Shown piece after piece: positions 1,030-17,901 of a DNA stretch of 17,901 bases. The notes under the pieces are model-generated. The model had not been told where the DNA came from and searched no databases. It worked only from the letters and a program-made list of their open reading frames with translations. This DNA comes from an uncultured archaeon (lineage in GTDB: Archaea; Iainarchaeota; Iainarchaeia; Iainarchaeales; 0-14-0-20-30-16), in assembly GCA_964480435.1 (NCBI GenBank), contig CAYZSS010000017.1, positions 1-17,901 on the forward strand. Reading direction: 5' to 3'. The position numbers and the translations under genes are program-made. Numbering within the stretch: position 1 is the first letter of the stretch; every line of letters begins with the position of its first letter.

Positions 1030-1623
1030 GTGACAATGGTAGATGCTTTTTTAGTAAGATATAAAATCAAAGTTTTAGATGAAGTAAAGCATTCTTCTTA
1101 TTTATATCAAAAGCTTTTTAGGGCCATATATGGATACACTCAAGTGGTTTGTAAACAAACAGGTAAAAAATACATTTATCATAGACCAGGGGTTTTGAGT
1201 AAGTTTGCTTTCATAAAAGAAGGTAAAAATGAAATTATAGTTACGAAAGAAGGGTTTTCTTATCTTATTAATTTTTTTAAAACAGGAAAAAATCCAGCCC
1301 ATAACTGGCAAAGTAAGGGAAATTGGACAGCAAGCTACAGTGTAGTAGATATAACTGTAGATGATGCAAAAGTAACTAAATCAGTTGAGAATCAATTAAG
1401 AAATACATACTCTCTTGATAACCAGGGGAACTATAAATTGCTAATTGACATCCTGGAAGAGTTGTCTATGGGTAAGCACATGGATAAGATGTTTCTAAAG
1501 CAGTATGAGCCTATAATAGTCCTTATACAAAGCGGTAAATGGTACGATATTGCCTTTAAAAGAAGTGGATTAGTTAAAAAGTTTGACAAGTTGGTCGGCT
1601 TTTATATTAAATATAAAGGGTAA
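1030..1623 (+). CDS. hypothetical protein (197 aa from GTG 1030; likely starts at ATG 1036)
   Basis: Long ORF with normal composition. GGTGTGAC (1027-1034) lies directly before ATG 1036, so the GTG at 1030 is probably part of the RBS. No family recognised. The N-terminal 85 aa alternate beta-like and helix-like segments (FLVRYKIKV / YLYQKLFRAIYGY / EIIVTKEGFSYLINFF). Confidence 0.55.
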   Translation: MTMVDAFLVRYKIKVLDEVKHSSYLYQKLFRAIYGYTQVVCKQTGKKYIYHRPGVLSKFAFIKEGKNEIIVTKEGFSYLINFFKTGKNPAHNWQSKGNWTASYSVVDITVDDAKVTKSVENQLRNTYSLDNQGNYKLLIDILEELSMGKHMDKMFLKQYEPIIVLIQSGKWYDIAFKRSGLVKKFDKLVGFYIKYKG

Positions 1624-1625
1624 AT

Positions 1626-2114
1626 CTACTTTGTTACTTTTAAACCTGATTTATTTTTTGAAGTAATTACCGCTCTATCCTTATTTATAGATATAAGAAT
1701 CTCTCTTTTTTTCCATTGTCTCTTTCCGCCAATAGAGTTTGTCTCTAATAATCCGATGTCAACAAGTGTTTTTATATAAGGATATAAACTTTTTTCGTTT
1801 TTATATTCAATAAAAAATAGTTGTTTTATTCTGTCTTTTACTGTTTGCATATCAACCCATTCTTCGAAGCCAATAACACTAATTACATGATAGGCCTGAG
1901 TATTTTTTAAAGGATCTATATAATTCCATAAATCGTCTACAACAGAGTCATCTTCTTCTTCTTCTTCAGGTTCGTTATGTACAAGTTTAACAGGCAAATT
2001 AGTTATTATGTTTTTCTGTTTATTTTCTAGAATTGGCTTGTTTTCCTCTTCAAGTTGTAACTTTGTTTCTTTTTTCCCAAAAAAATTTCTTAATTTATTA
2101 AATAAACCCATCAT
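1626..2114 (-). CDS. hypothetical protein with an acidic disordered N-terminus and a possible winged-helix C-terminal domain (162 aa)
   Basis: Intact ORF, convergent with the 1030-1623 ORF across a 2-nt gap. The N-terminal 60 aa are low complexity (EPEEEEEDD). The C-terminal part (LYPYIKTLVDIGLLETNSIGGKRQWKKREILI) looks like a recognition helix plus wing of a wHTH. That reading is inference only. Confidence 0.5.
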   Translation of the reverse strand: MMGLFNKLRNFFGKKETKLQLEEENKPILENKQKNIITNLPVKLVHNEPEEEEEDDSVVDDLWNYIDPLKNTQAYHVISVIGFEEWVDMQTVKDRIKQLFFIEYKNEKSLYPYIKTLVDIGLLETNSIGGKRQWKKREILISINKDRAVITSKNKSGLKVTK

Positions 2115-2123
2115 TGATCACTG

Positions 2124-2204
2124 GTAATTACGGTTATTACAATAATTACACGGGAGTATTTATAATAATTACTGTAATTACCGACAGTAATTACCGTTAT
2201 TACC
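2124..2204. repeat. seven 9-bp units RTWATTACN in tandem blocks (2124-2150 x3; 2165-2182 x2; 2187-2204 x2)
   Basis: Read directly: GTAATTACG GTTATTACA ATAATTACA; ATAATTACT GTAATTACC; GTAATTACC GTTATTACC. The core GTAATTAC is its own reverse complement. The blocks bracket a TATA-like TTATAAATA (minus-strand sense, about 2158-2168) upstream of the 1626-2114 gene, whose start codon ends at 2114. One isolated extra copy lies at 2288-2295. Confidence 0.85.
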
Positions 2205-2445
2205 TTATTTTGAGATGATATTGCGAAAATAAACGGATTTATTAGAAAAACAGCAAAAAACATAGTTAATTATGTGAGGTTTTTCATGTAATTACTTTTA
2301 AAAATACCTGCACTTACTCTTATTTTTTAATAAAAAGTTAACTTTTGGTAACTAAAAGCAACAAAAATCAAACAAAAGTAATATGTCCAACAAATTGTGT
2401 AAAAGCACATTAAAAAATTAAATAAAATACAACAAAAATAGGCCG

Positions 2446-2481
2446 GTAACTACAGTAATTACCGTTATTACCGTAATTACT
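2446..2481. repeat. four tandem 9-bp units (GTAACTACA GTAATTACC GTTATTACC GTAATTACT)
   Basis: Read directly. 2452-2472 (ACAGTAATTACCGTTATTACC) is a perfect 21-nt direct copy of 2184-2204. The block ends about 30 nt from the 3' end of the tRNA gene. Confidence 0.85.
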
Positions 2482-2511
2482 CAGTTAAGTTGTTAATCAT
2501 TTAAAAAGAAG

Positions 2512-2586
2512 TAGCGGGGGTTGGATTTGAACCAACGACCTCCGGGTTATGAGCCCGGCGGGCACTCCAGGCTGCCCTACCCCGCT
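2512..2586 (-). tRNA. initiator tRNA-Met (anticodon CAT), 75 nt, no intron, CCA not encoded
   Basis: The minus strand reads AGCGGGG TA GGGC AGCCTGGAGT GCCC G CCGGG CTCATAA CCCGG AGGTC GTTGG TTCAAAT CCAAC CCCCGCT A, a full cloverleaf. The A1:U72 pair and three consecutive G:C pairs at the base of the anticodon stem (G29-31:C39-41) are the archaeal initiator signature. Confidence 0.92.
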
Positions 2587-2608: not shown

Positions 2609-3154
2609 TTACTTTTTATTCCTTTCCCTAATGAAACTGGATAAAATTGCATTTTCATTTTCTATATTTGCTATTAGTTCTTTAATTTCGCTTTGTTTTT
2701 TTGCTTGATCTAAAACATTTAAATTTTCGTTACACATCGGGCAATAGAAATTATAATGTGCTGCAACTTCAAATTCAAAATCCTTGCATTTATTTGTACA
2801 AGTAAACATTTGGTATTCTTCATACTTTTTGCAACTGATTTTTAAGCTATCAAGTTTATCCAGGTTGTTTATTAAAACAAGTTTAGCTAATTTTTCGTAA
2901 TCCATATGCCACTTAAAAGTAAACCAGCCGGAATTTTCATTTTTTATTTTATCATAATTTACTATTCCATAAAAATGTAGTTTATTTAGTATGGATCTTA
3001 TTACTGTAATTTTGCAATCTAAATGTTGTGTAAAAAAATCATCTGAAGTAGTATCAGGGTATTTTCCCCAAATATTTATTAATTGACTTGCTGCGGTATC
3101 TACGTTTTTCAAATAATTTTGAACACTCCCCAGATTTAAAATCTTCGCAGCCAT
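2609..3154 (-). CDS. tfe: transcription factor E, alpha subunit (TFE / TFIIE-alpha homologue)
   Basis: 181 aa. Winged-helix part ITVIRSILNKLHFYGIVNYDKIKNENSGWFTFKWHMDYEKL carries the GW..F.W signature. It is followed by a Cys4 zinc ribbon (CTNKC ... CPMC). The T/A-rich box about 25 nt upstream of the ATG is compatible with a leaderless mRNA. Confidence 0.75.
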   Translation of the reverse strand: MAAKILNLGSVQNYLKNVDTAASQLINIWGKYPDTTSDDFFTQHLDCKITVIRSILNKLHFYGIVNYDKIKNENSGWFTFKWHMDYEKLAKLVLINNLDKLDSLKISCKKYEEYQMFTCTNKCKDFEFEVAAHYNFYCPMCNENLNVLDQAKKQSEIKELIANIENENAILSSFIRERNKK

Positions 3155-3205: not shown

Positions 3206-4957
3206 CTAGTAAATATAGTAATTACTACTTCTTTTTTGTTCTTTATCTTTTGCAGAATCAAATTTATTTACTCTCGGCCTGCCTGATTTTGCATCTTTTC
3301 TATAAGTAATATTTAAAATTTTTAAAAATTCATTCATGCCTGCTTTTTTTTCTTTAGGTTTTGTGCAAAAACCATTTTTTCCTGGTTCTCCATCAAATAC
3401 AAGTAGTTTATCAGAAATGAAATCTATAAACAAAATATCATGGTCAACAATAAATGCTGCTTTTTTTCTTTTTGCGATAATACTTTGTACTATTTTTGCG
3501 ATATTTAACTTTTCTTCAACATCTAAAAAAGCAGATGGTTCATCTAAAAGATAAAGATCGGCATTAGTAGCGAGTATTTTTGCAATCCATATTTTTTGTA
3601 AGGTACCTGTATTTAATTCATCAAGATAAAGATCCTCAATTTCATTTATTTTTAATTTAAACCAAATTTCTGACATAAGAAGTTCAGTATTTGTATTTTT
3701 AAAAAAATCTTTTACTTTTATATGTTCTGAATAAATGTCTTGTGGTTTATATGCCATTGTTTTGTTTAAAGTACTGTTGTTTTTGTCATCAGAATATTCA
3801 TCGCCAGTAAGCAATTTTATAAAAGTTGTTTTTCCTATGCCATTTTCCCCTATTATTCCCACAATTTCCCCCTCATAGATATCACCTGATTCTGCTTCTA
3901 GGGAAAAATCTGTGAATGTTTTTGTCATTTTGGGGTAGCTAAAAAATAAATTAGTTTTTTTTGCTTGTTCATCTCGGTAATAAAAATTTATTTCATAATC
4001 TCGGAACCTTAAGTTTTCATCGCTAATAAAACCATCTAGAAATTCGTTTATTGCCTGGTTTGTGCTTTTTATGCTTGATACAACCCCATAGGCGTGGGCT
4101 TTTCCAAATAAGATATGCAAATAATCACAAAGATAATCCAGTAAAGCTAAGTCATGTTCTACAATCAAGTTTGTATCCTTTAATTCGTTAATTAAATTTG
4201 CAAAAATAAATCTTTGTTTTATATCTAAAAATGAAGAAGGTTCATCATAAAAGTATATACTTGCCTTTTTTATAATTGTTGCGGCAATAGCTACTTTTTG
4301 TAATTCTCCACCCGAAAGAGTTGAAACTTCTTTATTAATCATATTTTGCATTTTTAATAATTTTACGACTTCTTCAAGTTTGTTCCTTTCGTCTACTTTT
4401 TTCAATAAGTCTATAACTTTTCCAGTAACTGTTTCTTTTATTCCGTTGATATTTTGTGGTTTATATGCTACCTTCATCTTTTTTTCCGCAATATCAATAA
4501 AGGTCTGTTGCAGTTCTTTTCCTTTATAATAATTAATAATTTTTTCGTAATTACCCCCCTCTTCGTAATTACCTAAGTTTGGGACAATATTTCCTGAGTA
4601 AATATTTAATATTGTTGATTTACCAGTTCCATTTTTTCCTATTAACCCTACAGAGTTGCTATTTCTAATGAAGGGCAATCTAAATAATCTAAACTTATTT
4701 TTCCCATATTGGTGTGTTGGGTCATTTAAATCAATTGACAAATTGATTATATCTATTGCATTGAATGGGCACTTTTTTGGGCAGATTCCACACCCACTAC
4801 ATAGGTCCTCAGAAATATGTACTTTTTTATCATTATCATCATAATAAATTGCCTCTTTACCCATCCTGATTACCGGACAGATGTTATAGCAGGCAAATCC
4901 GCAACTTTCTTTTCTACATTTTTTATAATCAATAATGGCAATTCTCTTTTTTTGCAT
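3206..4957 (-). CDS. abce1: ABCE1 / RNase L inhibitor homologue (ribosome-recycling ATPase)
   Basis: 583 aa. N-terminal double 4Fe-4S domain (CRKESCGFACYNICP; CSGCGICPKKCPFNAI). Two ABC NBDs: Walker A GKNGTGKST and GENGIGKTT, Walker B FYDEPSS and LLDEPSA, signature LSGGELQK in NBD1, H-loops VEHD and VDHD. Confidence 0.95.
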   Translation of the reverse strand: MQKKRIAIIDYKKCRKESCGFACYNICPVIRMGKEAIYYDDNDKKVHISEDLCSGCGICPKKCPFNAIDIINLSIDLNDPTHQYGKNKFRLFRLPFIRNSNSVGLIGKNGTGKSTILNIYSGNIVPNLGNYEEGGNYEKIINYYKGKELQQTFIDIAEKKMKVAYKPQNINGIKETVTGKVIDLLKKVDERNKLEEVVKLLKMQNMINKEVSTLSGGELQKVAIAATIIKKASIYFYDEPSSFLDIKQRFIFANLINELKDTNLIVEHDLALLDYLCDYLHILFGKAHAYGVVSSIKSTNQAINEFLDGFISDENLRFRDYEINFYYRDEQAKKTNLFFSYPKMTKTFTDFSLEAESGDIYEGEIVGIIGENGIGKTTFIKLLTGDEYSDDKNNSTLNKTMAYKPQDIYSEHIKVKDFFKNTNTELLMSEIWFKLKINEIEDLYLDELNTGTLQKIWIAKILATNADLYLLDEPSAFLDVEEKLNIAKIVQSIIAKRKKAAFIVDHDILFIDFISDKLLVFDGEPGKNGFCTKPKEKKAGMNEFLKILNITYRKDAKSGRPRVNKFDSAKDKEQKRSSNYYIY

Positions 4958-10358: not shown

Positions 10359-10835
10359 ATGGCAGTTCTTGATCAATACGATTTTAAGATACTACAAATA
10401 CTTATAAAAGATGGTAGAGCGTCCTTTAGTAACATTGCTAAAGAGATTGGAATAAGCGACGTAGCAGTAAAAAAAAGATTTGAAAGACTAATATCTAAAA
10501 AAATAATTAAGCAAATATCTTTGGATATAGGTTATGATGTAGTTGGATTCCAAGGGATGTTTTTAATCCTATTAAAAGCAAATAATTATTTTTATAAAAA
10601 AATAATGGCATCACTAAAATCAGAAGATTTTGTAAAAACAATTTATAGAACAACAGGTGATTTTAATATAACCTTTTTCTATCTTGTTCCAGACATGTCG
10701 CAAATAGAATTGTTGGATAATGTTTTAACAAAGCTAGAAGGGGTAATTGATTTTAAAATATTAATTATAACAGGTAAAGAATATGAAAAAGATTCATTAC
10801 CACTGTCAAGTTTGCAAGTGTATTATAGGCACTAG
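10359..10835 (+). CDS. Lrp/AsnC family transcriptional regulator
   Basis: 158 aa. HTH_AsnC segment DFKILQILIKDGRASFSNIAKEIGISDVAVKKRFERL followed by a RAM-type C-terminal domain. AGGTGA lies 6 nt upstream. Confidence 0.85.
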   Translation: MAVLDQYDFKILQILIKDGRASFSNIAKEIGISDVAVKKRFERLISKKIIKQISLDIGYDVVGFQGMFLILLKANNYFYKKIMASLKSEDFVKTIYRTTGDFNITFFYLVPDMSQIELLDNVLTKLEGVIDFKILIITGKEYEKDSLPLSSLQVYYRH

Positions 10836-15457: not shown

Positions 15458-17901
15458 TTACTCTTTACAAGTAATGCTTATTCCAAATCTTATTTGTGTT
15501 CTATTATTAATGGAATTTTGTGACATTCCAGAAATCCAGCAAGTAATTCCGCCTGTATCTATAATATTTGACTTTGTCTCCCCCGGTGTAAACTGTTTTC
15601 CCCAATTTTCACTTGTTATACTTCCCGAGGGGTTTTCGAAGAAATACTCTGACCAACCATTAAATTTAATGCCTGCTTTTTTAAGTATTCTTTGCCCGGT
15701 ACTAAATAAGCCACAATTAAAACTATCTGTCTTTTCTATAGATACCGTACACTTGCTTAGGTCGGTTACACTGGAATTACAAACAGGTACTTCCTTATCT
15801 CCGTCTATGTCGCCAAGGCCTATAAATCCTAAAGATACCATACTGCTGCATATCATTGATAAGTTATAGCTTATTTTGACTTTTTTTAATGCATCAAGTG
15901 TAGCCTTTGCTTTTGTTTGTTTATCTTGTGCTTCTGTTTTACTGCTACAGCTTCCGTTTGAAAGACAGTAAGGGAAAGCAGCTCCAAACATATAATTGCA
16001 TAAATCGTCTCCAGTCTTACTAGCTATTGTATTGGCCTTACAGTTCGGAGCATAAAACCCGTTGCTATACCTAACCCAATTTAAATCATATGCTCTCTCT
16101 GTGTTTTTCACTAATAGACCTTTTGAATTTGCATATGCTTGGGTAGTGTACAAATATAAATTATCTGTTGTTGAAGTAGCACAGACTGTCTTTCCGCCGA
16201 TATCAGAACAATAATTAGATTTACACTGCTCATTGTAAGTGCAAAGTGTTAATAATAATAATCCAGTTGTAGTTGCGGAAGGCATAGAACAAACACCACT
16301 ATTACAAACTAAACCACTTTGACATTGGGCCATCTCTTGACAATACCCTCCAGCTGTAAGTAAACCACACTTTCCTGTTAAAGAAGAGGTTGTTACTTCC
16401 CACCCAGTTTTTTTGAAAACCCAATTGTTTAATTTATCATCAATATACTCGGAAGCAATTAATTGGTTATTATAGATACATACATTTTTACACAGAGGCG
16501 AAGAGTTACATTCTGCACCATCATCGAGAGCCTTCTTCTGCTTACAGTCATTTCCCCAGCCAGTTACTACATAAATATTATTTCTGAAACAAGAATAAGA
16601 CCCTGTTGGACAAAATGAGACAACATTCTTTTCTGCTTTACAAGCAATATCTCCGCTCTTTTTACAGGTCTTTGTCTGCCCATCACAAACAAGGTCTCCT
16701 GAACAGTTACTATTGTTAACACAACTATCCCCCGCAAGCCCTAAGCAAGTCTTTGTCTTTGAATCACATACATTACTGGCGCACTGCTCATTGGTGGTAC
16801 ACTCATTTGGGCTTTTTATTTTTTCTTTACAAGCCCCAGTATCACAATATTTTCCTGCGTCACAATCTTTAGATGTTGAACAAGTTGCACAAATATTATT
16901 TTTACAAACTCCGCTCTTACACTCATTTGCATTTAAACAGTTTGCTCCTCCTGCACTGAAACCGGCTGGAGCACATTTGCTTGTATTTGAGTCACAAACA
17001 GCCCCTAGCAAATCAAATGGTTTTCCGTCTTCTAAAAATGTTTTACAGGTGCTATAAAACTGTGTGTTTCCCGTAGCAGGATCACAAGCAAGAGAATTAA
17101 TTGCTGTTTTTACACATTTTTTTGTAGTTGTATTACAATATCCTAATTGAGAACTAGTTTGGGTCCAAGGACACTCTTTATCATAATCACATTTATCTCC
17201 TTTAAAACTGGCAGATAAAGTAGAACAATATGCAACCTGTCCGCTCTTTAATTTAGTGTCGCTAAACTTTATTCCAATATAACTATTGTAGTCTTTTCCT
17301 GCCGCGTCTTTTTTTACTTCATAAGTTGCACAAACCAAAGGATCTGCACATTCACTGGAATTAGTACAATCTGATTTAGTTTTTTTACTTCCTGAACTGC
17401 TTGTATGTCCCCCTGAACTACTCCCTCCACTTGCACTTCCTGGAGAAGATCCGCTTCCTCCACTAAAGCTTCCTGGAGAAGATCCACCCTCTCCCGTACT
17501 ACAATTTAATCTTGTTTTAAAAAAATAAAAAGCAGTCATTTCAACATTACATAAAATATCTTTTAATTGATTTTGACCAATGCCATTACAGAAACAGGAA
17601 TTCTGTACATCAAAAGTAGTTGAATCTGATGGGCTTGTACTTACTTTACTACTTGGGGTAGGTGTAATTGTCTTGCTACTATTACAAGCAGTTTCTAGAA
17701 TGTTTTTCTGTGCAAGGTTGCTTACTGCTGAAATATTAAAAACGTTGGCTATTGCTCCAGTCGCCACTTCACAGCCTTGTGCTTGTGTGGGGCTAATGCA
17801 TTTATATAAATAGGTACCATCCTGAACATCAATTGTATAGTCTGAAGGGCAAGCGGAAAAACCCATGCCTATAAAGATAAAAACAAAAAATATAGAAAAT
17901 A
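15458..17901 (-). CDS. very large Cys-rich secreted / surface (possibly lipid-anchored) protein, 5'-truncated by the window edge
   Basis: The frame stays open upstream of ATG 17866 to position 17901 and encodes ..FSIFFVFIFIG-MGFSAC, a hydrophobic signal or anchor ending in a lipobox-like FSAC. The real start is therefore outside the window. I count 62 Cys in the 802 listed residues. There are nine C-x5-C-x3-5-C-x4-8-C modules, a Gly/Ser/Pro linker (GGSSPGSFSGGSGSSPGSASGGSSSGG) and many N-x-S/T sequons. Confidence 0.8.
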   Translation of the reverse strand, partial: FSIFFVFIFIGMGFSACPSDYTIDVQDGTYLYKCISPTQAQGCEVATGAIANVFNISAVSNLAQKNILETACNSSKTITPTPSSKVSTSPSDSTTFDVQNSCFCNGIGQNQLKDILCNVEMTAFYFFKTRLNCSTGEGGSSPGSFSGGSGSSPGSASGGSSSGGHTSSSGSKKTKSDCTNSSECADPLVCATYEVKKDAAGKDYNSYIGIKFSDTKLKSGQVAYCSTLSASFKGDKCDYDKECPWTQTSSQLGYCNTTTKKCVKTAINSLACDPATGNTQFYSTCKTFLEDGKPFDLLGAVCDSNTSKCAPAGFSAGGANCLNANECKSGVCKNNICATCSTSKDCDAGKYCDTGACKEKIKSPNECTTNEQCASNVCDSKTKTCLGLAGDSCVNNSNCSGDLVCDGQTKTCKKSGDIACKAEKNVVSFCPTGSYSCFRNNIYVVTGWGNDCKQKKALDDGAECNSSPLCKNVCIYNNQLIASEYIDDKLNNWVFKKTGWEVTTSSLTGKCGLLTAGGYCQEMAQCQSGLVCNSGVCSMPSATTTGLLLLTLCTYNEQCKSNYCSDIGGKTVCATSTTDNLYLYTTQAYANSKGLLVKNTERAYDLNWVRYSNGFYAPNCKANTIASKTGDDLCNYMFGAAFPYCLSNGSCSSKTEAQDKQTKAKATLDALKKVKISYNLSMICSSMVSLGFIGLGDIDGDKEVPVCNSSVTDLSKCTVSIEKTDSFNCGLFSTGQRILKKAGIKFNGWSEYFFENPSGSITSENWGKQFTPGETKSNIIDTGGITCWISGMSQNSINNRTQIRFGISITCKE

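Follow-up and report, generated by a model that had tools for sequence, protein, structure and literature searches.

The window analysed here, the whole 17,901-nucleotide stretch of contig CAYZSS010000017.1 (assembly GCA_964480435.1), is chromosomal DNA from a low-GC Iainarchaeota/Diapherotrites archaeon, one of the DPANN archaea. Between a gene for a 162-residue winged-helix protein (1626..2114, minus strand) and a tRNA-Met(CAT) gene (2511..2586, minus strand) it carries a long intergenic region in which copies of the palindrome GTAATTAC and its variants are strung together at 9-bp intervals. Sequence comparison indicates that these repeats form a real, conserved array under selection, and with moderate confidence we regard the array as the autoregulatory operator array of the adjacent winged-helix protein.

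The gene order around the array is kept across the family, and consists of TFE-alpha, the initiator tRNA-Met, the long intergenic region, the winged-helix gene, a convergent gene for a 195-residue protein and a PRC-barrel gene; some lineages have a dus gene or glycosyltransferase genes inserted into this order. The convergent gene, at 1030..1623 on the plus strand in the window, encodes a protein of 195/197 residues with no assigned function and is in every case the downstream neighbour of the winged-helix gene. In addition to two PRC-barrel genes, the 197- and 162-residue genes (both without Pfam match) and the initiator tRNA, the window encodes TFE-alpha, ABCE1, Pelota, TYW3, Elp3, a regulator of the Lrp/AsnC type (10359-10835) and a topoisomerase. 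Identification of the tRNA as an initiator, already made in the original prediction from the sequence alone, fits the A1:U72 pair and the three G:C pairs closing the anticodon stem, which are archaeal initiator hallmarks. The tRNA gene adjoins the repeat region in most lineages; another gene lies between them in two (L133 and L134).

Organisation of the repeat array

Twelve units of the form [G/A]T[A/T]A[T/C]TAC are present where the original prediction placed them, starting at 2124, 2133 and 2142, at 2165 and 2174, at 2187 and 2196, at 2288, and at 2446, 2455, 2464 and 2473, with strict 9-bp phase within the blocks. Also found as claimed are a 21-nt direct repeat, ACAGTAATTACCGTTATTACC, at 2184-2204 and 2452-2472, and a 14-nt palindrome, AAAAGTTAACTTTT, at 2333-2346. 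The degenerate pattern RTWAYTAC has 37 matches on the two strands of the window, compared with 7.9 ± 3.0 in shuffled sequences, and the perfect palindrome GTAATTAC occurs 10 times where 0.43 copies are expected; neither count was reached in any of 200 shuffles. Tandem Repeats Finder detects arrays with a period of 9 at 2125-2150 and 2446-2480. Two dyad axes alternate along the array, the first centred on the 8-mers and the second on the TTAC-N-GTAA junctions, and the sequence TAATTAC-N-GTAATTA within it constitutes a 7-1-7 dyad.

The units that lie closest to the winged-helix gene are arranged around its promoter. A TATA-like box, TTATAAATA, can be read from the sequence at 2157..2165 (minus strand) and is invariant across four relatives. 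Since the distance from TATA box to transcription start is usually ∼26 nt in archaea, the position of this box, at 2165-2157 on the minus strand, would place the start near 2134. A unit pair at 2165..2181 abuts the box on the side of the TFB recognition element (BRE), as read on the minus strand, and a further pair (GTAATTAC C GTTATTAC) at 2187..2203 occupies approximately -69 to -53 relative to the inferred transcription start. On the other side, the three units of the proximal block (2124..2149) fill the interval between TATA box and start codon and cover the inferred start. Just upstream of the start codon is a Shine-Dalgarno-like GTGATC (2116..2121, minus strand), again read from the sequence and presumably complementary to the 3' end of 16S rRNA; GTGAT stands at the equivalent position in the relatives L004, L006 and L054. 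Two ATG codons follow, at 2114 and 2111, and the second, giving MGLFNKL..., is probably the true start. The original description of units around the TATA-like box and near the start codon is thus borne out, with units on both sides of the box, the nearest to the start codon being 9-12 nt from it or overlapping it.

The remaining units lie farther from the gene. One isolated GTAATTAC unit (2288..2295) is found in mid-spacer, and a distal block of four phased units (GTAACTAC, GTAATTAC, GTTATTAC and GTAATTAC, 2446..2480) begins 30 nt past the 3' end of the tRNA-iMet gene. The last two distal units (2444-2464, minus strand) form a hairpin with a 9-bp stem, followed by TATTTTT, which looks like an intrinsic terminator downstream of the tRNA; the T-run is not kept in L004.

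The original account needs correction in two respects. One is the base composition of the spacer, discussed below; the other is that four further perfect copies of GTAATTAC occur outside the repeat region, at 1663, 3218, 4547 and 4565. Three of these (3218-3225, 4547-4554 and 4565-4572, the last two 18 bp apart) are inside the ABCE1 gene on the minus strand. Read against the translation, they fall on Gly/Ser-Asn-Tyr codons (GGT/AGT AAT TAC), in LGNYEEGGNY and in the C-terminal SSNYYIY, and are probably coding coincidences, not operator sites; a role as regulon sites in ABCE1 was rejected on this ground. A ATTACTGTAAT dyad is also seen within the TFE-alpha gene, at 3000-3010.

Conservation of the units and their linkage to the winged-helix gene

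The region upstream of the gene was read in 14 lineages, over up to 20 kb per genome, the encoded proteins being ∼40-70% identical to that of the window: the window itself, L004, L006, L054, L008, L133, L134, L197, L010, L011, L012, L135, L040 and L196. GTAATTAC-type units are present at the promoter of the winged-helix gene, or of an operon of dus and the winged-helix gene, in 14/14.

Three relatives (L004, L006 and L054), with proteins ∼64-65% identical to the window's, repeat the whole layout, with a distal block that follows the tRNA, a single central unit and blocks on either side of a TATA box. The box, ATTATAAATACT, is identical in all three, and the last block ends before GTGAT and the start codon. 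When the window and these relatives are placed in a 4-way alignment, the unit columns are 80% identical between pairs as against 43% for all other intergenic columns. The central unit is invariant despite diverged surroundings, and the distal block of the window aligns with the equivalent blocks of the others. Next to the TATA box, the pair GTAATTAC[A/C]GTAATTATTATAAATACT is kept in all four, with one substitution in L054, and the proximal block, GTAATTATTGTAATAA-N-N-GTAATTACCA, varies at its two N positions only. Arrays in this clade comprise 12-16 units in three clusters, spread over ∼360 bp, and the distance from the distal and central copies to the last proximal unit is fairly constant, at roughly 330-390 bp.

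Elsewhere in the family the layout differs. Lineages in which dus is inserted (L008, L133, L134 and L197) have their arrays upstream of dus, with an additional unit immediately preceding the winged-helix start. In the most distant lineages (L010, L012, L135, L040, L196 and L011, the last with 50% GC), 2-5 units lie on either side of an ATATAA box and extend into the start codon. Only the window's clade has the distal block and the central copy, and a distal block is absent from L010, L011, L012, L135 and L040. For these five genomes, sampled over 5-20 kb each, all 12 perfect copies of GTAATTAC found in 74.7 kb are located within 100 bp upstream of the gene. These 100-bp intervals make up 0.67% of the sequence, and simple arithmetic puts the probability of five independent coincidences near 1e-11. 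Linkage between site and gene persists through the dus or glycosyltransferase insertions and in the 50%-GC genome. The element best kept in the divergent lineages is the junction dyad ATTAC-N-GTAAT, as in ATCATTAC-A-GTAATGAT of L010, and for this reason it may be the junctions between units, not the 8-mers, that are recognised.

Erroneous gene models provide a separate view of the same arrangement. Several database proteins (P0002, P0019, P0032, P0040 and P0043) carry false N-terminal extensions that contain VIT or VVI, VIT being the translation of GTA-ATT-ACN where gene callers have read upstream through the array; the same is seen at L134 6001-6036 and L197 3001-3040. The true start of the extended proteins is an internal MGLF or MSLF, and this is independent evidence that the true start directly adjoins the array.

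Linkage of this kind bears on the proposal that the repeats are the sites of a different, unlinked DNA-binding protein, such as a global regulator or chromatin protein, while the winged-helix protein recognises something else. The link from protein to motif is drawn from sequence, the window does encode other DNA binders, among them the Lrp/AsnC protein, and a few GTAATTAC copies stand outside the promoter. The motif, however, follows the winged-helix gene where the neighbours change and is found nowhere else in the 5-20 kb available from distant lineages, and the extra copies in ABCE1 coincide with the codons described above. Moreover, the DNA motif is unchanged across the family while the winged-helix domain is also unusually invariant. 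We consider an unlinked factor quite improbable.

The layout seen in the window's clade, with two repeat blocks bracketing a 247-bp spacer in an intergenic region of ∼400 bp in a compact genome, had also suggested an iteron-type replication origin, in which the blocks would be initiator-binding iterons flanking an A/T-rich unwinding element. Distant lineages, too, carry dispersed repeats of another kind (ACTCACTTTT) in the equivalent region. The spacer, which had been described as almost entirely A/T, is in fact 23% G+C (23.2%), no different from other intergenic regions; ten others in the window range from 12 to 35% GC, the window overall being 30%. The arrangement of block, spacer and block is found in one clade only, whereas the promoter-proximal units are universal, and the units do not appear to resemble origin recognition box (ORB) or mini-ORB elements. 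The lack of an orc1/cdc6 gene in the window, observed from the outset, is confirmed, and a search extended to the called genes of related loci, up to about 10 kb on each side, finds neither orc1/cdc6 nor another initiator gene. Cumulative GC skew within the window follows gene orientation and reaches its minimum at about 4.5-5.5 kb, where ABCE1 and Pelota diverge, away from the repeats. Ca. Forterrea, the one member of the Diapherotrites with a closed genome described, has its skew-defined origin beside cdc6 (PMC5905446). Gene context, spacer composition, restriction of the layout to one clade and the position of the Forterrea origin leave the origin proposal unsupported, and we regard it as very unlikely indeed.

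The spacer does contain conserved sequence apart from the units. Islands CACAAATTATTGGACA, TTAACATATTTAA and TTTTTTGC are seen in the 4-way alignment and, together with the ability of the last two distal units to form a hairpin before a T-run, could suggest a small structured RNA or small protein as a product of the spacer, with the repeats as promoter or terminator elements. Rfam, however, matches only the tRNA, folding z-scores are +0.89 and -0.21, and the consensus structure has an energy of -0.24 kcal/mol with no compensatory pair or covariation; the hairpin with its T-run is not retained in L004. No credible open reading frame is present, the small ones, including those called in L010 and L012, being of low complexity and not conserved, and one overlapping the tRNA. 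A product encoded in the spacer has hardly any probability in our estimation. A decayed dus gene as the source of the spacer was rejected when tblastn gave no similarity.

A second conserved element of the spacer is the 16-mer CACAAWWWNYTGGACA (2384..2399, minus strand; CACAATTTGTTGGACA in the window), which has no relation to the 9-mers; the window has one copy of it, and all four sequences of the 4-way alignment carry it without change. It recurs at L011 9306, L012 9367, L040 2308 and 4270, and L008 2674, and in five copies in the 20 kb of L010 (9491, 14136, 14239, 15262 and 15937). In distant lineages it directly follows the TFE-alpha stop codon, and sometimes it immediately precedes the next start codon, as with dus in L008 and at two intergenic sites in L010. 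This 16-mer is probably a site for another factor, or else a putative gene-boundary signal for termination or initiation. The lineages that have no distal block contain 2-5 dispersed direct repeats of ACTCACTTTT (TTACTTT in L011) between the tRNA-iMet and the winged-helix promoter, located at L012 9690-9910, L135 5560-5830, L010 9775-9860 and L011 9630-9920.

Scans of wider collections recover the same locus among other matches. In a GTDB genome scan for three RTWAYTAC units, with at least 120 matches, L040 and L054 are this locus, and the rest of the matches listed are mostly chance or coding repeats. Metagenome contigs with three perfect units at 9-bp spacing number 60 (L136-L195), and the winged-helix gene is on two of them by tblastn (L143 and L187), both again representing this locus. 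Other metagenome arrays, in many unrelated contigs, are often in GC-richer sequence. Some stand in an extended frame without stop codons, translated as (VIT)n or (G/S-N-Y)n, and some of them are within giant open reading frames of more than 1000 residues that share conserved RAEAY[KR]V at the flank; several arrays have an assembly of origin in common (CXWJ01 and WBZQ01). A perfect GTAATTAC array at 9-bp period is also present at L067 7690-7724. No second array is seen in the locus sequences that carry the winged-helix gene (up to 20 kb per genome). A literature search returned nothing relevant on the motif or on DPANN winged-helix autoregulators.

The winged-helix protein and its proposed mode of action

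The possible winged helix that the original prediction placed at the C-terminus of the 162-residue protein is confirmed by an AlphaFold model and a fold search. Confidence in the AlphaFold2 model (predicted local distance difference test, pLDDT) is above 90 over residues ∼60-150, which adopt a canonical winged-helix fold with H-H-H-wing topology; the helices comprise residues 73-80, 89-100 and 111-119, the β-hairpin wing residues 123-136, and only a short C-terminal helix follows the wing. Across 24 aligned family members the N-terminal half is variable and a C-terminal domain of ∼80 residues is extremely conserved, 25 of its positions being invariant. These invariant residues cluster in the wing and in the third helix, the usual recognition helix of winged-helix proteins. 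Foldseek comparisons with the PDB return winged-helix DNA binders only, namely Fur/PerR, F-93, RosR, TubR (ranks 20 and 41), MecI/BlaI, PadR and histone H1, with modest E-values (2e-3 to 2e-2) and with TM-scores near 0.35-0.45 for the best matches, the DNA-binding domains of Fur/PerR.

The family itself is a lineage-restricted, phylum-specific orphan, as judged from sequence searches. It has no Pfam match (E≤0.01), no NCBIfam match and no convincing PDB sequence match, and an exhaustive HMMER profile search finds only 40 clusters among 1.84 billion representative proteins. Close homologues have the source names Candidatus Iainarchaeum and Diapherotrites, and no relatives are found in viral, plasmid or phage collections. 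Two other identities for the protein were considered and rejected. That of a divergent TFE-beta, raised by the constant presence of TFE-alpha nearby, finds no TFIIE-beta/RPC34 match in Pfam or among the top fold matches. That of an excisionase-like protein of an integrated element, with the tRNA-iMet as attachment site, finds no second copy of the tRNA 3' end at any locus. A tyrosine recombinase is encoded near the locus in L010, L011, L012, L135 and L196 and has Xer-type domains (Phage_int_SAM_1 and Phage_integrase).

What can be regarded as established is that the repeats are real, under selection and tied to the promoter of this gene in every lineage, and that the gene product has a DNA-binding fold. 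The autoregulatory reading that the original prediction offered is well supported by these two facts, the winged helix in the protein and the motif at its promoter in all 14 lineages. In this reading, the winged-helix protein (1626-2114, minus strand) would bind the GTAATTAC 9-mers and control its own promoter. Since the units flank the TATA box, at 2165-2203 upstream and 2124-2149 downstream, and cover the inferred transcription start, occupied units would block binding of TATA-binding protein (TBP) and transcription factor B (TFB) or recruitment of RNA polymerase, giving negative autoregulation. The 9-bp phasing and the alternation of the two dyad axes suggest that binding is cooperative, side by side along the phased units. 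Auxiliary operators would be provided in the window's clade by the distal block (2446-2480) and central copy (2288-2295), which could concentrate the protein locally or form a repression loop of roughly 330-350 bp. The winged-helix protein as binder, the transcription start, the sign of regulation and the looping are all inferred.

Several features sit less easily with autoregulation. The binding of the units by this protein is a prediction, and the transcription start an inferred one. Simple autoregulation needs neither 12-16 units over ∼360 bp nor a distal block beside a tRNA gene, and a conventional winged-helix dimer would fit awkwardly on an 8-bp palindrome that recurs every 9 bp. The protein has no evident effector-binding domain, and there may be a wider regulon or arrays elsewhere in the genome. 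The operator model also gives no explanation of a conserved amphipathic segment at the N-terminus. This segment, MGLFxKIKxLFxKK or equivalent (residues 2-15; window 2070-2111, minus strand), is cationic and amphipathic in most members, with a hydrophobic moment of 0.5-0.96 and a net charge of +2 to +4, several shuffle controls not being significant, and is followed by an acidic disordered linker. In these respects it is reminiscent of the membrane-targeting helices of PspA/Vipp1, SepF or Noc, and a transcription factor that binds membranes would be out of the ordinary.

These features invite a different interpretation, in which the array is a structural DNA element, a centromere-like site or an anchor of chromosome to membrane. 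The winged-helix protein would polymerise on the phased repeats, like ParR on parC, TubR on tubC or omega on heptads, with its N-terminal helix tethering the complex to the membrane as in Noc and autoregulation arising as a by-product. Consistent with this, the gene's own promoter lies between iteron blocks, in the manner of parC and tubC, the 12-16 units in three clusters exceed the needs of a simple operator, TubR is among the fold matches, most family members share the cationic amphipathic N-terminus and acidic disordered linker, and arrays are unique to this locus in the local sequence examined. On the other hand, no NTPase gene of the ParA, ParM, TubZ or SegA type is adjacent in any lineage, most lineages have 2-5 units confined to the core promoter, which has the look of an ordinary operator, and the family is without plasmid, phage or viral relatives. 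Membrane binding is itself suggested by a sequence pattern for which, as noted, several shuffle controls were not significant. We judge a structural element of this general kind to be unlikely, if not negligibly so. The specific version, in which a membrane-anchored DNA binder polymerises on the array to form a unique, motorless, Noc/ParR/TubR-like anchor or centromere-like complex beside the tRNA-iMet gene, with autoregulation secondary, strikes us as a shade more doubtful.

Two other proteins of the window deserve comment. The convergent 195/197-residue neighbour (1030-1623, plus strand) is conserved across the phylum and gives a very confident AlphaFold model (mean pLDDT 92.5, predicted template-modelling score 0.87). 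Foldseek gives no significant match to this model in either the PDB (best E 0.12) or BFVD, the protein is without Pfam or NCBIfam match and without NTPase signature, and its model may represent an undescribed fold or family. An 802-residue cysteine-rich protein (15458-17866, minus strand), possibly secreted or surface-located to judge from its sequence, is encoded in a stretch of higher G+C content (36-39% compared with ∼29% elsewhere in the window).

Comparison with known systems

As the DPANN archaea are uncultured, almost nothing is known of their gene regulation, and at this locus a winged-helix family that is unannotated and specific to the phylum is found together with a DNA motif that is sharply defined and deeply conserved. 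Were the membrane tether or centromere interpretation true, it would provide a first clue to chromosome organisation in the Iainarchaeota. Comparisons with better known repeat-binding systems show partial likenesses in each case.

Archaeal replication origins, in which ORB or mini-ORB elements surround a DNA unwinding element next to orc1/cdc6, share with this locus the placing of repeat blocks on either side of an A/T-rich non-coding stretch. Here, however, there is no orc1/cdc6 neighbour and no excess of A/T, and the layout is limited to one clade. Repeat blocks around an A/T-rich spacer are insufficient to call an origin, and a tempting misreading is thereby corrected.

The plasmid partition systems ParR/parC of R1, TubR/tubC of pBtoxis and omega/heptads of pSM19035 all have tandem iteron blocks flanking the promoter of the binder's gene, and TubR is a winged-helix protein found among the fold matches. 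In contrast to these systems, the present locus has no adjacent motor NTPase, is chromosomal and set among core genes, and is conserved across a phylum; its protein has no plasmid, phage or viral relatives, and its downstream neighbour is the convergent 195-197-residue protein without NTPase signature. MetJ and its met-boxes offer an 8-bp palindrome arranged head to tail in 2-5 copies, on which adjacent dimers bind cooperatively, but MetJ is a ribbon-helix-helix protein and the met-boxes recur every 8 bp, as against a predicted winged-helix binder and a 9-bp period here.

A closer structural likeness is found in the Fur family, since the DNA-binding domains of Fur and PerR are the best structural matches and the 7-1-7 dyad is also similar. 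Fur operators are A/T-rich arrays of short repeats, either GATAAT hexamers or overlapping 7-1-7 dyads, which lie over the promoter and can be extended by polymerisation. The protein described here has no Fur Pfam match and no C-terminal metal-binding dimerisation domain, and the period of its array is 9 bp, not 6. We conclude that the array is not of the Fur, ParR/TubR, MetJ or archaeal oriC kind, because the features that define each of these are not found together here.

The archaeal winged-helix autoregulators Ss-LrpB, Pyrococcus LrpA, MDR1, Phr and RosR are likewise small proteins with sites over the BRE/TATA box and the start of their own gene. They too have several sites, suggesting cooperative binding, and RosR is among the fold matches. 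In its mode of action the array would be comparable to the promoters of these regulators, with their multiple operators, and to Fur-box arrays. Their sites are spaced inverted repeats of 13-17 bp, whereas the present array has an 8-bp palindrome every 9 bp, in up to 16 units reaching ∼360 bp upstream. The 162-residue protein differs from them in having no sequence-family membership and no ligand-binding or known dimerisation domain, and in its amphipathic N-terminus. The locus is best classed as that of a winged-helix regulator, uncharacterised and restricted to one phylum, together with its cognate operator, unusual in its 9-bp iteron geometry and its N-terminal amphipathic segment and ordinary in its class of mechanism.

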